64,000 nucleotides of DNA from Candidatus Bathyarchaeota archaeon (GTDB taxonomy: Archaea > Thermoproteota > Bathyarchaeia > Bathyarchaeales > Bathycorpusculaceae), in contig CAVYRJ010000008.1 of assembly GCA_963770935.1 (NCBI GenBank), forward strand, positions 160,001 through 224,000, written 5' to 3'. Each line of letters starts with the position of its first letter. Position 1 is the stretch's first letter. The translations under genes and the position numbers were made by a program. The notes below the pieces were generated by a model. The model was not told where the DNA came from, ran no database searches, and saw only the letters and a program-made list of their open reading frames with translations. Positions 37,994 through 43,536 of this stretch are shown piece after piece.

Positions 37994-38100
37994 GAAACCT
38001 TCTGATTAAAGCTTTAGCTATTAAGAGTTTTTCTTGCGTGCATGGTCAAGTGACCTAAAAATACAAATACAAAGACAAACAAAAGGTGCATCGATCACAC

Positions 38101-39099
38101 ATGTCCACCGACGAGGAGTTAATGCAGGAAGTTCAGACCTTTCTAGTTGAGCGCTCAAAAAAGGCCATTTTCTTGGCGAGGGAAGCTATCTTTAAAGAAC
38201 AAATTAAGTACACGCCCCTCCTTGAAGCCCTCACTTATTTTATGCAGGAAGTATGGACAAATGCAGCTCCTCACCCAACTCTTTTGTCCTTAACCTGTGA
38301 AGCAGTCGGGGGAAACCCTGATGCAATAATTGAAATAAGTGCAGCAATGGTGCTGTTGACTGGTGCAGCAGATATCCACGATGACATTATCGACCAATCA
38401 ATAACAAAAGATTCTAAACCTACAGTTTACGGCAAATACGGCAAAGACATTGCAGTCATAGCAGGAGATGTATTGTGGTTCAAAGGCATAATGATGTTAA
38501 ACGAGGCGTGTGAATCGTTCCAAAAAAATAAAAGATATGAAATTCTTGAGATAGCAAAGCAATCCTTCTTTGATATTGGTAGTGCAGAAGCCAACGAAGC
38601 AAATCAAAGAAGAAACCTTGATCTGCAACCTCAGAAATCTCTAGAAATTATTAGAATGAAGGCTTCAGTTGCGGGGGCAGCGGCCAAGATTGGTGCTATT
38701 GTTGGAGGTGGAACCGAGGAAGAAGTTAAAAGCCTAGGCGACTTTGGAGATAACTTGGGATTTCTGATGACTATCCGTGACGAATTTGTAGATGTTTTTG
38801 AGGCAGATGAGTTGAAGAACAGGTTTACTAATGAGTGTTTGCCGCTTCCTATTTTGTACGCTTTCCAAAACATAGTCTTAAAAAGACAAATTTTGGATAT
38901 ACTTAAACAGGCAGACATTAAAGAATCTGATTCAGAAAAAATTGCGGAACTAGTCATTAACTCCCCTCAATTACATAAGCTTACAGGTATCATGAAATCA
39001 TCAATGAAAATAGCTACCGAGAGTTTAACAAATATGAAAAAGAACAAAAATATATTTAATCAATTATTGAAGTCTGCGCTACAAGATTTGCCTTCTTAA
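38101..39099 (+). CDS. Isoprenyl-diphosphate-synthase-fold protein with degenerate motifs (candidate ComQ-like peptide prenyltransferase 1)
   Basis: First Asp-rich motif HDDIID intact; no RRG after it; no N-terminal GKxxR; second motif reads IRDEFVD. The family is clear, the function is inferred. ATG at 38101 (GTG at 38086 is an alternative). Confidence 0.8.
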   Translation: MSTDEELMQEVQTFLVERSKKAIFLAREAIFKEQIKYTPLLEALTYFMQEVWTNAAPHPTLLSLTCEAVGGNPDAIIEISAAMVLLTGAADIHDDIIDQSITKDSKPTVYGKYGKDIAVIAGDVLWFKGIMMLNEACESFQKNKRYEILEIAKQSFFDIGSAEANEANQRRNLDLQPQKSLEIIRMKASVAGAAAKIGAIVGGGTEEEVKSLGDFGDNLGFLMTIRDEFVDVFEADELKNRFTNECLPLPILYAFQNIVLKRQILDILKQADIKESDSEKIAELVINSPQLHKLTGIMKSSMKIATESLTNMKKNKNIFNQLLKSALQDLPS

Positions 39100-39127: not shown

Positions 39128-39169
39128 TTACCACCAGTACATTCTTACAGGTCTAATTGGTTTTTTCGT
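39128..39169 (-). CDS. Putative 13-aa precursor peptide (M/T)KKPIRPVRMYWW
   Basis: Minus strand reads CAGGAGGAAAGGAAT-ACG AAA AAA CCA ATT AGA CCT GTA AGA ATG TAC TGG TGG TAA: GGAGG 8 nt upstream, TATA-like TTTTAAAG near 39206-39213, T8 tract after the stop. The start codon is ACG rather than ATG. Confidence 0.6.
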   Translation of the reverse strand, partial: TKKPIRPVRMYWW

Positions 39170-39340
39170 ATTCCTTTCCTCCTGTATTGTTGTTGAACGT
39201 ATAAACTTTAAAAGGTTTGCGGTAACTAGCCTCTATGTCAAGACATTTATCAATATTAGCAATCTTGTTTATTACTACTCAAAGCTTATCTTAACCGAAA
39301 TCTCAAATACTTTCTAACTGAACTCGCACGATAGAATTTA

Positions 39341-40666
39341 GTGTTAATCATGGGTAAAACTGGAAAACTCACAATGGATTTGCGCCTAACTCTAGGAAGT
39401 GCCTTTTTAATCGTAAATGCGCTCGTTTGGTATAGTGTTGCAACTAATATTTTGCCATCTATAATAATGAAAGACTCACAAAGTCTATTGTTATGGAGTT
39501 TTCATTTTGTTGCACTAATTATTTCAATTTTTATCGGTATCCTGTTGACTAAAAAAATTGGCACCCGATTCTTGCTTTTGATATGGACGAGTATTGGAAT
39601 TTTTTCTCCTCTAACTTTGTTTGCTATCGATAGTGAAGGTATTCCGCCCTTAGCTATGGTACTTTTCGGTGTATCTCTTGGGTTGGGTATACCGAGTTGC
39701 ATGGCTTACTTTTCTAGATCTACTCAGGCTAACAATCGGGGAAAATTCGCCGGTTTGATAATGCTATTAATTGGCATATTTAGTGTTTTACTGATTGTAT
39801 TAAGTGCAAATAAAATAGAGCCAACAGCCATTATTTTGATGATCTGGCGAACATTTGGGCTGCTATTTTTTCTTGTCCCAAATATAAAGCAACCTATAAT
39901 ACCTGATAAGCACTCAGTATCATTTTCTTTTGTTCTGAAACAAAGGTCCTTCATCTTATACTTGATTCCATGGCTGATGTTTTCTTTAGTTGGTTATCTA
40001 AGTGTGCCTGTGCAGGAAAGCGTTTTAGCGCAACAAGAAATTAATATTCTCAGGCTTGCCGAAAGTATTATTGGAAGTGTTTTTTCCGTAATTACTGGAT
40101 TGCTGATAGGTGTTGTGGGCAGGAAACGTATTGCAATTATTGCATTTGTTTTGGTTGGGATCGAGTTTGCGATTTTAGGAATGTATCCAGACCAAATGGC
40201 AGGATGGATGATCTATACAGTACTTAACGGGGCAGCATGGGGAACGTTCTATGTTCTGTTTGTAATGTCAATTTGGGGAGATTTGAGCCAAAATACTTCG
40301 ATAGAAAAGTACTATGCCCTTGGAATCATTCCGTTCTTTATATCCAAGTATTTGTCGCTAGTGCTAGGAGAAAATGTAGCTGCTGCAGTTTCTGTAAACA
40401 CTTTATTTTCATTCACTGCGTTTTTCCTTTTTCTAGCTGTTTTGCCCTTGGTTTATGCGCCTGAGACTTTGCCTGAAAAAGTCATGAAGGATAGGGATCT
40501 TAAAAGTTACATCGAGAACGCAAAAAAGAAAGCCCAAAAAGATGCTGATAAAGCAGCTAATAACAAAGAGAAAAAATTGAAAAAAGTGTCCGAGGAGAAA
40601 ACTCAAGATGCCAAACCTGATAAGGCCTATGAAGAAGCAAAAAGACTTGCAGAAAAATACTACTAA
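39341..40666 (+). CDS. MFS-like 12-TM protein 1 with charged C-terminal tail
   Basis: About 12 TM helices, NRGKFAG, GRKRIA, APETLPEK, tail ending YEEAKRLAEKYY. Confidence 0.8.
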   Translation: MLIMGKTGKLTMDLRLTLGSAFLIVNALVWYSVATNILPSIIMKDSQSLLLWSFHFVALIISIFIGILLTKKIGTRFLLLIWTSIGIFSPLTLFAIDSEGIPPLAMVLFGVSLGLGIPSCMAYFSRSTQANNRGKFAGLIMLLIGIFSVLLIVLSANKIEPTAIILMIWRTFGLLFFLVPNIKQPIIPDKHSVSFSFVLKQRSFILYLIPWLMFSLVGYLSVPVQESVLAQQEINILRLAESIIGSVFSVITGLLIGVVGRKRIAIIAFVLVGIEFAILGMYPDQMAGWMIYTVLNGAAWGTFYVLFVMSIWGDLSQNTSIEKYYALGIIPFFISKYLSLVLGENVAAAVSVNTLFSFTAFFLFLAVLPLVYAPETLPEKVMKDRDLKSYIENAKKKAQKDADKAANNKEKKLKKVSEEKTQDAKPDKAYEEAKRLAEKYY

Positions 40667-40870: not shown

Positions 40871-40915
40871 TTATATATTACGAGTCACGACTTGTTTCAT
40901 AAGGGTAAGAGGTGA
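40871..40915 (+). promoter_or_regulatory. TATA box and Shine-Dalgarno of the peptide 2 gene
   Basis: TTATATA at 40871-40877; GAGGTGA at 40909-40915, 5 nt before ATG 40921. Confidence 0.6.
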
Positions 40916-40920
40916 AATAC

Positions 40921-40974
40921 ATGAAACAAAAACAAGCAATCCGAGCTAAACCCATAAATTGGGGTGGATGGTAA
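40921..40974 (+). CDS. Putative 17-aa precursor peptide MKQKQAIRAKPINWGGW
   Basis: ATG...TGG GGT GGA TGG TAA with a strong archaeal SD and TATA box; directly upstream of prenyltransferase 2; resembles peptide 1. Confidence 0.75.
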   Translation: MKQKQAIRAKPINWGGW

Positions 40975-41078: not shown

Positions 41079-42086
41079 ATGCCAACTAGCTCCCTTACCC
41101 AGAATGCGTTATGCATAATTCAAGGTAAGGGTCATTCTGCGATATCTCAAGCTTGCCAAAAAATATTCCAAAAACAATATGATAGAGGAATAATGCGTGA
41201 AGCATTACACTATTATGCGAAAATGGTTCTTCCAAATGTTCTGCCGATTTTTCCAGCTCTAGGTTACTTATCTAGCAAAGCCGTGGGCATGGTCCCCGAA
41301 AACTACAACTCGGTAGCAAGGGCTATGGTGCTTATAACATCCTCAGGAGATATCCACGATGACATCGTTGACAATTCAAGGAAAAAGTTTGGACGAAAAA
41401 CGGTTTTTGGCAAATTCGGGAAAGATATTGCTATTTTGGCAGGCGATGTATTGCTTATTCAGGGAACAGCAGACCTTCAAAGCGAATGCTACAACCTGTC
41501 AAGCAGGCACAGAAAGGCCATAGTGGATTTGGTTGCTGCCTCGATGTTCGAAATCGTGACAGCTGAAGCACTAGAGATTTCCTTGTGTGATAAAGTTAAT
41601 GCGTCTCCAGAGGAGTATTTTGAGGTCATCAGAATGAAAGGTAGTGTTGGAGAGCTTCATTGCAAAATCGGTGCAATAATCGGTGGCGGAAGTCAAGAAG
41701 CGATCGATGACTTAGGACATTATGGCAGGGTAATCGGGATCTTGTCGACTCTGAAAGAGGAATTTGTTGATATGACAATGTTGGAAGAGTTTAAGCACCG
41801 AATCAAGTACGAATTACCGCCATATCCCATGCTTTGTGCCATGAAGAATAAAGCTCTGAAAAAAAAAATTGTTGGCATCACCGAGGGGCCCAAGTTTTTA
41901 GAGAATGATTTGCAGGCAATTGAGGAAATGGTACTAGGTTCGATAGAAGTAAAAAGGCTCATAGCCGAATTTAGGGACTTAGGCAGAAAAGAATTGACTA
42001 CAAACTTGTTGTTAAAAGAAAATAAAAGAGCAAGTGAGTTGTCGTTTATACTTGAGGCTTTGACAGTTGAATTGTCGCTTGTTTAG
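41079..42086 (+). CDS. Isoprenyl-diphosphate-synthase-fold protein with degenerate motifs (candidate ComQ-like peptide prenyltransferase 2)
   Basis: DIHDDIVD, TVFGKFGKDIAILAGD, IRMKGSV, second motif LKEEFVD; paralog of 38101-39099. Confidence 0.8.
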   Translation: MPTSSLTQNALCIIQGKGHSAISQACQKIFQKQYDRGIMREALHYYAKMVLPNVLPIFPALGYLSSKAVGMVPENYNSVARAMVLITSSGDIHDDIVDNSRKKFGRKTVFGKFGKDIAILAGDVLLIQGTADLQSECYNLSSRHRKAIVDLVAASMFEIVTAEALEISLCDKVNASPEEYFEVIRMKGSVGELHCKIGAIIGGGSQEAIDDLGHYGRVIGILSTLKEEFVDMTMLEEFKHRIKYELPPYPMLCAMKNKALKKKIVGITEGPKFLENDLQAIEEMVLGSIEVKRLIAEFRDLGRKELTTNLLLKENKRASELSFILEALTVELSLV

Positions 42087-42165: not shown

Positions 42166-43536
42166 GTGCACCCAAAACGCTAAGAATAATCGGTAAAAAA
42201 ATATCGTCAATCTCAAAAGAAACGTTAGTAAGCACTTTTTTAGTAGCGAACGCTTTTGTTTGGTATCTTTGCGGATTCGGGTATTTGCAAGACATAACAA
42301 GTACGAATTTTAGCGGTAATTCACTACTATTAATGGTTAGCGGCAATTTCGTCAGCTTGGTTTTATCTGCCTTTGCTTCTTCCCTTTTAACAAGCAAATT
42401 CAAGCATAGATTAAATTTTCTCAAATATTGGAGTATTGCAGGTGCATCACTTTCAATCATTTTCGCTATCATAAACCTGCAAGAGCTTACAAATATAATA
42501 GCAATTGCAATCATAATTGGTTCGTACTTCGGTATAGGAATGCCCGTTTGCATGGGCTACTACGCAAATTCAACTAAGCCTCAAAACCGAGCAAAACTAA
42601 GTGGAATCATAATACTTTTTATAGGAATAGGTTATCCAGCTATCTCTATAATTGGAAACAATGCACCGCTCTTTTTAGCCGCCACTTTGGCGGTATGGCG
42701 AATCTCGAGTTTATTTCTTATTCGATATATTAAGCCCGCTGAGCAACAAGAAGAGTCAAAACAGAGGGTTACTTACCGGTCAATAATTACAAACAAGAGT
42801 TTTGTTCTCTATGCTCTCCCATGGCTAATGTTTTCTCTCATAAACGACCTGACAATGCAGTTGAATACTAGCTGACTTTAGTAGCAGTACATTTCCCCAG
42901 GCTTTTGGAAATAACTTTCTGCTTATAGAAATGGTCTTAGCTGGGGCTTCAGCAATTATTTGTGGGCTTTTAGCTGATAGGAAAGGTCGAAAACGATTGG
43001 CATTGATCGGCTTTGTACTTTTAGGCGTTGGGTATGCTTCTTTAGGGATTTTTACCGGCAACTACCTTGCAGCCTGGTTTTATGTATGTGTTGACGGTAT
43101 CGCGTGGGGTGCTTTTTCAATGTTGTTTTTAGTAACTCTCTGGGGGGATATTGCTCAGGGAAAAAGCGCTGAGAAATATTATGTTCTTGGAGTCCTTCCA
43201 TATTTGTTTTCAAACCTAGCTCGCGTTTTAGCTGGAACTTACATATCAGCTAATATGATAGAGGGAACGGCTTTCTCGTTTGCCAGCTTCTTTCTATTCA
43301 TTGCAATACTGCCTATAGCATTTGCTCCAGAGACCTTGTCTGAAAAAATAATAAAGAAACTAGACCTCAATAGCTATGTCAACCAAGCATTGGAGAAAGC
43401 AAAGAAAAAGAATGCAAAAAATGTGGAGCCAGGTCAAAGAGTTGTATCACAGAATGAAATGACAAGCAATGATGAAGCCGATGATACGTCAAAAGAGTAC
43501 GAAGAAGCAAAGAAGTTGGCGGAAAAATACTATTAA
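42166..43536 (+). CDS. MFS-like 12-TM protein 2 (frameshift near 42872; start uncertain)
   Basis: FLVANAFVWY upstream of ORF 42285 matches FLIVNALVWY of paralog 1; NRAKLSG, DRKGRKRLA, APETLSEK, ends YEEAKKLAEKYY. Confidence 0.75.

Follow-up and report, generated by a model that had tools for sequence, protein, structure and literature searches.

Layout of the window and its two peptide genes

The window considered here, a 64,000-nucleotide stretch of a Candidatus Bathyarchaeota genome (G000), carries after leuS two adjacent cassettes made up of the enzyme gene PT1, the transporter gene MFS1, a type A peptide gene, the enzyme gene PT2, the transporter gene MFS2 and a radical SAM gene. PT2 (41079..42086, plus strand) encodes, based on fold and motifs, a trans-IDS-fold prenyltransferase-like protein that is the predicted cognate enzyme of the type A peptide, and PT1 (38086..39099, plus strand), the paralogous enzyme of the second cassette, is 38% identical to it. 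MFS1 (39341..40666, plus strand) is intact and divergent from a type B peptide gene; MFS2 (42198..43536, plus strand, start approximate) lies in two frames with a break near 42875-42900 and shows 63-78% identity to the intact MFS of locus L073.

The type A gene occupies positions 40921..40974 of the plus strand, from an ATG at 40921 to a TAA ending at 40974, and its 17-residue product, MKQKQAIRAKPINWGGW, consists of a 12-residue basic leader, MKQKQAIRAKPI, which ends in K-P-I, followed by a predicted five-residue core, NWGGW, as delimited by translation and by the comparison of paired cores described below. An earlier, sequence-only reading of the locus had proposed this ORF as an unannotated gene with a TATA box, a strong Shine-Dalgarno (SD) sequence and an ATG, about 100 bp upstream of the second prenyltransferase, and these elements are indeed where it had placed them: TTATATA at 40871..40877 (plus strand), within a conserved CTTATATATTACGAG element whose recurrence as a 15-mer points to the promoter of the type A operon; GAGGTGA at 40909..40915 (plus strand), five nucleotides before the ATG and conserved in alignment A2; and a gap of 104 nt to the PT2 ATG at 41079. 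In the whole of G000, GAGGTGA precedes ATG-initiated ORFs of 10-25 residues only three times. Translation also bears out the reported Trp residues at positions -4 and -1 of the peptide. The description of the peptide as nearly leaderless does not hold, in view of the 12-residue leader that precedes the core.

The six loci closest to PT2 in the enzyme tree, and also L149, encode a peptide ending in NWGGW at this position, and the five core codons differ from those of these seven loci by 14 changes, all synonymous and at third positions, with the lack of non-synonymous changes being partly by construction, because the rows compared were chosen by their WGGW ending. The NWGGW ending shared by the six nearest relatives is supported by the tree independently of that choice. 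The original proposal had been tied to codon-level conservation in related loci, and such conservation was found; given also the conserved SD and TATA elements, the relatives with the same ending, and the family-wide enrichment over controls, the ORF is almost certainly a real gene. Sequence comparison shows that, although overlooked by gene callers, it is kept in many uncultured archaea next to the genes for a remodelled isoprenoid enzyme and a transporter. Because the PT2 subclade lacks a type B peptide, the type A peptide is the only partner of PT2.

The sequence-only reading did not include the type B gene of the window (39128..39169, minus strand), which is convergent with PT1 and encodes the precursor (T/M)KKPIR followed by PVRMYWW from an ACG start. 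Upstream of it, on the minus strand, are an SD sequence, GGAGG (39178..39182), an operator-like element, GTTCAACA-n3-ATACA (39183..39199), and a TATA-like element (39206..39214); the operator-like element thus lies between the TATA element and the start of the gene, and is common to PadR, pilin and pilus-ATPase promoters. In the enzyme tree, PT1 groups with enzymes whose peptides resemble this minus-strand ORF. The ACG start is found in the window and in L143, L127, L156, L032 and L114, with ATG at the same place in L025 and L100; besides the window, 5 of 123 type B genes start with ACG, four of them in close relatives and one in another subclade. We considered a one-off error and ruled it out, as the ACG recurs in the four close relatives. 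Behind a strong SD, it looks like a lineage-conserved near-cognate start, which could dampen expression.

Distribution of the cassette and the shared peptide core

Synteny in Bathyarchaeia, which the sequence-only reading had named as a check, is extensive: of 301 genomes sampled from the order, 190 carry the cassette, namely a trans-IDS-like enzyme without IPP-binding residues, a basic peptide of 10-22 residues and an MFS transporter, and the named records with PT2 homologues are Bathyarchaeia. We examined 189 loci (30, together with 80 further listed matches and a named-record set of 79; 77 weaker matches were left out), which reduce to 156 distinct enzyme genes, and applied a fixed ORF filter of 8-26 residues, at least three Lys or Arg, and Trp in the last three residues. 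At the type B position, which is downstream, convergent and on the opposite strand, an ORF passing the filter lies at 93 of 148 evaluable PT genes, compared to 13/1113 for other long ORFs of the same genomes and to an empty control window on the same strand downstream (0/148). The type A position (upstream, same strand, in most cases after a protease gene) gave 35/151, some of which are chance matches, compared to 27/1113 for other ORFs and to a nearly empty control window on the opposite strand upstream (1/151). An MFS homologue is near 144 of 149 evaluable PT genes; the counts are overstated, because kin are not independent.

In most genomes of several families the cassette occupies fixed chromosomal places, leuS-rSAM or PadR-MinD, and across 151 loci the recurring neighbours are MFS, rSAM, PadR, leuS, amidohydrolase, protease, MinD and TrmB genes. 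A histidine kinase of the ComP/PalP type is not a recurring neighbour in these 151 loci, with one PAS-kinase cluster occurring in 9 loci only. The radical SAM gene (TIGR04084) was considered as a member of the pathway and not assigned to it, as it follows 74 of 151 loci, with MinD/TrmB taking its place in other families. Tandem duplications of the enzyme gene that share a single downstream peptide are seen in L050, L066, L117 and L128.

With a looser score and hand curation, by which three type A and one type B candidates were dropped as false and eight loci were corrected, the set comprises 123 distinct type B and 25 distinct type A peptides of 9-22 residues, with Lys and Arg together making up 33% of their residues and Trp 8%. 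Each of the 25 type A peptides has a Trp among its last three residues. Among type B peptides, 102 of 123 carry Trp in the last five residues and 21 have none, which rules out Trp as an invariant residue of the family; seven have no aromatic residue in the last six, and their enzymes keep the same catalytic residues. Commoner than Trp is a hydrophobic residue followed by Arg, 2-8 (mostly 4-5) residues from the end, seen in 118 of 123. Peptides with a basic leader and P-x-R and without an aromatic core residue were noted in L139, L110, L140, L172, L053, L061, L209 and L244. An enzyme clade that had seemed to be peptide-less (L045, L060, L125, L133, L180, L184) turned out not to be so, as its type A peptides lie behind the protease gene in a divergent operon. 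This protease-peptide-MFS operon is divergent from the enzyme gene, its peptides end in WW, and the conserved TATA element faces the enzyme gene.

Fifteen loci carry both a type A and a type B peptide, and it is in these pairs that the limits of the core can be read. Counting from the C-terminus, the number of identical pairs is 15, 15, 15, 13, 13, 0, 0, 1 and 0 of 15, and in the last four residues 58 of 60 positions are identical, where shuffled partners reach 29.9 on average and 47 at most. When the type A peptide is compared with its own partner and with the B peptide of the nearest tree neighbour, its own partner matches better (63 vs 44 of 65; ten wins, three ties and no losses in 13 pairs). 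The shared stretch follows Arg in type B and typically K-P-x in type A, and in L081 and L082 its length changes from five to four in both peptides together. Paired cores are encoded by different codons, and selection therefore acts on the peptide. Because paired peptides match only in their last four to five residues, the likely mature product of the gene in the window is NWGGW, and these five residues would probably carry a lipid tag and act as a signal, a type of peptide hitherto reported from bacteria alone. Peptide endings also cluster by enzyme clade (FastTree, 146 proteins), an observation that alone proves little because kin share labels; taken with the paired cores, the alignments indicate that peptide and enzyme vary together.

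A sample of 401 genomes of the phylum gave matches in 54, among them 19 of the 32 from a family outside the class (f27), where a convergent peptide is found in 17 of 19 loci, always with Trp and mostly of the form MKxYNPTP(I/V)R(L/I/F)W..., followed by MFS, MinD and TrmB genes. Neighbouring protein clusters are labelled Verstraetearchaeota and Nezhaarchaeales, and we infer f27 to be Methanomethylicia. Within f27 (L214-L230) the peptide is nearly constant, and tandem duplicates are seen in L215, L221, L223, L224 and L226. No peptide was detected in four related enzyme loci of f42. In a paralogous group, clade II (80 metagenome loci), 60 of 63 evaluable loci have at the type B position an ORF of 40-120 residues whose last six residues include Trp, compared to a background of 341/3473, and one protein of the wider clade II group is labelled Thorarchaeota. 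None of 18 long clade II precursors matched a Pfam or NCBIfam family below E 0.012. A geranylgeranyl-reductase-like gene is present in 40 of the 80 loci, which suggests a reduced (phytanyl-type) tag. Clade II is the strongest support for Trp as the acceptor of the family. Helical precursors of 60-120 residues ending in Trp were noted at L235:4085-4348(-), L236:4055-4312(-), L239:2571-2864(+), L237:2776-2997(+) and in L248-L327, and in some, L303 and L313, the C-terminus is made up of GGW repeats.

The enzyme, the protease and the operator

The predicted model of PT2 (pLDDT 94.4) has a trans-IDS fold, with a TM score of 0.80 to the IdsA/GGPP synthase 1wy0, its best structural and profile match, and with Ord1 (PDB 9v4g), an enzyme of the same all-alpha fold, at rank 31 and, in a separate comparison, at E 6e-19. 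PF00348 is the only Pfam match. The FARM of PT2, DDIVD, is intact, and its SARM, EEFVD, is without the upstream Gln; across the family, the FARM DDxxD is conserved at 100%, and DDxxD, K103, E166, K187 and D231 are each conserved at 95-100%. GKxxR, the His before the FARM and the second Arg of RRG, which in trans-IDS enzymes are IPP ligands, are replaced when PT2 is compared with 1wy0 and with the intact synthase present elsewhere in G000 (C14:58271-59368). PT2 scores about 100 bits against profiles of chain-elongating synthases, with cut-offs of 468-500. Because the ligands of Mg and of the allylic diphosphate are kept and those of IPP are replaced, the enzyme can hold a diphosphate donor and probably not IPP.

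A Gln three residues before the SARM is absent from the family, the position being occupied by Thr, Ile, Ser or Ala in clade I and by Arg in 76% of clade II. Clade I has a new, invariant Asp three residues before the FARM, present in 96-100% of the enzymes in the Trp, the Tyr/Phe and the non-aromatic peptide classes alike. This Asp may either take over the N-H contact of the missing Gln or interact with the Arg conserved in the peptides; clade II enzymes keep the region I Arg and have Gly in place of this Asp. A search for a single active-site residue that would separate Trp from Trp-less classes gave no clean candidate; E163H, D123N and a bulkier side chain at position 90 occur more often in the Trp-less clades, which are made up of kin. 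Prediction of a complex between a clade II enzyme and its 81-residue precursor scored 0.40, 0.04 and 0.02, with controls not folded, and carries no weight here. PT2 quite likely prenylates the peptide covalently, and we consider it likely, with somewhat less confidence, that Trp17 is the residue modified. The sequence-only reading had noted that the modified Trp of ComX lies 3-4 residues from the C-terminus, which corresponds to the Trp at -4; sister loci carry Phe there (xFGGW) and keep the terminal G-W, as in PalX, which makes W17 a better candidate acceptor than W14.

Of 25 genes for an S1 protease (PF00089), 24 have a Trp-ending type A peptide gene immediately after them, and the exception, L180, also has a peptide. 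The protease starts with a hydrophobic signal peptide, followed by a conserved mature ITGN start, and its alignment to urokinase, although with weak E-values, gives Gly189, Val216 and probably Thr226. An S1 protease with Gly189 and Val216 is elastase-like and favours small aliphatic residues at P1. The residues that precede type A cores are I, V, A, M, T and G, so that such an enzyme fits cutting after P-[I/V/A/M/T/G], and this agreement played no part in defining the cores. As the protease appears to be secreted, processing would take place outside the cell. Six protease queries found no trace of it in G000, a genome 91% complete.

The TATA 15-mer of the window, allowing up to two mismatches, heads the homologous operons of 29 of 189 loci, lying before the protease gene in the intact ones and directly before the peptide in L149, L077, L078 and L081. 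Because the element precedes the protease gene in intact operons, we infer that the one at 40871 is the operon promoter and that G000 has lost the first gene. A scan for sigma-70 promoters, a model unsuited to archaeal ones, gave what is expected by chance (10 vs 10.0).

Between the TATA element and the start of type B genes lies an operator of the form TGT-x-S-x-ACA-n3-ATACA, found in 96 of 120 type B promoters compared to a mean of 0.55 in base shuffles; it has no match in the type A promoter of the window. PadR ORFs are present in 60 of 151 loci, and a PadR pair precedes the enzyme gene in many. In G000, where PadR is unlinked to the cassette, 9 of the 25 best matrix matches fall at four close PadR homologues, each with the operator upstream (C15:18444-19400, C8:51822-52295, C10:52160-52588 and C14:43532-43909). 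One of these four paralogues has a divergent partner PadR, as is seen beside the enzyme in other families. Other best matches in this genome lie between a type IV pilus ATPase gene (PF00437, PilB3_C) and a gene for an ATP-grasp acyl-CoA synthetase subunit (C8:147256-149916, L330), before an archaeal pilin gene (C14:16928-17212, L333), and at the type B gene of the window, and the placements at the pilus ATPase/ACS pair and at the pilin recur across the genus. The exact pattern occurs 80 times in 26 genomes of the genus, compared to 8 for the reversed control. Of the 73 exact matches outside G000, 66 could be classified: 20 at PadR genes, 10 at peptide/MFS genes, which are there by construction, 8 in the intergenic region between pilus ATPase and ACS-beta genes, 5 at pilins and 23 elsewhere. 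A shared operator of this kind suggests an autoregulated PadR regulon with pili as its output, in which PadR would be a candidate for binding the operator or the peptide, based on their co-location.

A putative peptide signal and competing explanations

The reading that we favour, with a probability of roughly 0.58, is that the 17-residue peptide is the precursor of a prenylated pheromone that serves as a signal. PT2 would transfer a prenyl chain, from a diphosphate donor made by a housekeeping synthase, to the C-terminal Trp17, and the chain would probably be long, because the residues at -5 and -4 before the FARM are small. The MFS transporter would then export the lipopeptide, and the basic leader would be cut after K-P-I to leave NWGGW(prenyl), by the co-encoded, secreted elastase-like protease in relatives and by another protease, or not at all, in the window. 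The signal would be read inside the cell or at the membrane, with PadR as the best candidate receptor, and would act on a regulon of the PadR family, with the type B peptide gene, the PadR genes themselves and type IV pilus genes among its members.

Such a scheme has counterparts in bacteria. PalQ/PalX of Paenibacillus alvei pairs a trans-IDS-like enzyme with a precursor that ends in Trp, and ComQ/ComX of Bacillus pairs an IDS-derived enzyme with a precursor which, as described, is processed to a short Trp peptide; the long helical leaders and terminal Trp of clade II precursors are reminiscent of PalX, and the many co-varying enzyme-peptide alleles, which resemble pherotypes, together with a putative output on pili or DNA-uptake-type machinery, of ComQXPA. 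Both bacterial systems are characterised by prenylation of Trp at C3, in which a pyrroloindoline is formed. There are also differences. PalQ is described as acting on a C-terminal Trp with a preference for GW and GGW ends (PMC10853753, PMC13290415), whereas the archaeal Trp is often at -2 or internal, positions that PalQ is said to reject, and indole recognition is attributed to a Gln, Q197 in PalQ and Q216 in Ord1 (PMC10853753, PMC12510300, PMC13290415), which the archaeal enzymes lack. In place of the NHLP leader of PalX, absent from the 17-residue peptide, clade I precursors have some 8-15 basic residues, and in place of the PalP kinase the archaeal cassette has an MFS transporter, an S1 protease and PadR. 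Compared to ComX, the archaeal precursor is much shorter, many loci have two precursor genes for the same core, and some cores are Trp-less; compared to ComQ, the archaeal SARM is still acidic, (D/E)(E/D)xxD; ComP and ComA are absent, and a dedicated transporter and protease are encoded in archaeal cassettes. Ord1 is described as carrying out no isoprene condensation with IPP and as acting on free indole via Y215, Q216 and D219 (PMC12510300), whereas the archaeal enzymes have peptide partners. IdsA/GGPP synthase shares with the cassette enzyme the intact FARM, and differs in the IPP-diphosphate ligands and the Q-x-x-DDxxD SARM that the latter has lost.

Because the cassette departs from these systems in the Gln, the leader type and the kinase, we do not file the cassette, whose hosts are archaea, with PalQ/PalX or ComQ/ComX. 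As far as its parts can be read, it is a system that would work like ComX and PalX and is a member of neither. The earlier idea of a ComX-like substrate thus survives in part: the peptide is a probable substrate of the adjacent prenyltransferase-like enzyme, with ComX-like logic, but the Gln before the SARM and a linked ComP/PalP-like kinase are absent, and Trp is missing from 21 of the 123 type B peptides. We found no published description of the cassette in the literature searched, which covered few subscription journals and no supplements, and the supplements of ComQ-like genome-mining studies could list its proteins. A count published in 2025 gives three described instances of true quorum sensing in archaea, one with a known molecule, and one validated signal gene, and its passages on them mention no peptide signal (PMC12240190).

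Alternative explanations were weighed against this reading. It is unlikely, to our judgement, that the prenyl acceptor is the conserved Arg, a Lys or a newly formed N-terminus, with the C-terminal residues setting specificity only, even if several observations fit: the hydrophobic-Arg motif extends to Trp-less type B peptides and to 16 of 17 f27 peptides, the invariant Asp of clade I is Gly in clade II, whose precursors lack that motif, and the indole-binding Gln is missing. Type A peptides, however, have K-P-x rather than Arg at this place and share with type B only the Trp-containing core, all 25 of them have Trp in the last three residues and clade II precursors end in it, cleavage by a secreted protease would come too late to create an N-terminus for a cytoplasmic enzyme, and all characterised trans-IDS-like prenyltransferases target Trp, as stated in a review. 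Were the acceptor not Trp, this would be new chemistry for the trans-IDS fold.

We also assign a low probability to an unmodified pheromone or regulator, similar to Phr or XIP, with the IDS-fold protein acting as receptor or as a peptide-gated enzyme for the synthesis of a small terpenoid or the prenylation of some small molecule, and with the MFS moving either the peptide or that product. Cores of 4-6 residues after a basic leader, together with an extracellular protease, resemble Phr-type processing, and Trp-less cores do exist; the trans-IDS fold can, moreover, prenylate free indole, as described for Ord1. The leader, on the other hand, lacks a hydrophobic Sec region, the enzyme retains every donor-binding residue, and the long helical precursors, terminal Trp and geranylgeranyl reductase of clade II fit a modified substrate better.

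Quite unlikely, in turn, is a prenylated cationic antimicrobial or membrane-active lipopeptide that carries no signal, with the MFS as its exporter or immunity protein. The composition of the peptides and their high allelic diversity would agree with it, and prenylation by PalQ is described as raising the activity of antimicrobial peptides (PMC13290415); but the cassette sits at fixed chromosomal places in the majority of genomes of several families, the basic residues belong to the variable leader and not to the shared core, and the operator is common to regulators and pili. Lastly, a chance or untranslated relic ORF beside an ordinary prenyl-diphosphate synthase is very improbable, since its 17 codons, the frameshifted MFS beside it and the lost protease are outweighed by synonymous-only divergence, in-frame indels, conserved SD and TATA elements, family-wide enrichment and the loss of the IPP ligands of PT2.

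If the prenylated-pheromone reading is correct, these enzymes would be peptide prenyltransferases that recognise very small tags and may modify residues other than Trp, and the cassette would supply every part of the system, from precursor and enzyme through transporter and protease to operator and candidate output, with more than 120 natural peptide-enzyme pairs in a host group among the most abundant archaea of sediments. All steps except signalling itself are open to testing without culture. A wider proposal, to which we hold only tentatively and think rather doubtful as a whole, is that of a widespread archaeal peptide-signalling circuit, in which a separately evolved, Gln-less IDS-fold enzyme would prenylate cores of 4-6 residues, with a non-Trp acceptor in certain lineages, followed by MFS export, a co-evolving, secreted elastase-like protease and a PadR regulon leading to type IV pili with no histidine kinase, across Bathyarchaeia and other Thermoproteota and with paralogues reaching Thorarchaeota.

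In the window itself we lean towards two signalling channels with different cores. The PT2-side copy may rely on MFS1 and another protease, or be mis-assembled, or be decaying, the latter because the protease is untraced in the genome and MFS2 is frameshifted; the MFS2 break may in turn be an assembly error or mark a pseudogene. DNA reads from three runs (shares 0.05-0.07) covered short pieces, with the ACG start and the MFS2 break outside their coverage. The radical SAM gene (TIGR04084, 43562-44693) is split by a frameshift as MFS2 is, through assembly error or decay. Elsewhere in the genome, on the minus strand of contig C9 near 67109, a very acidic ORF of 22 residues with three Trp follows a GAGGTGA SD and is unrelated to the peptide family.
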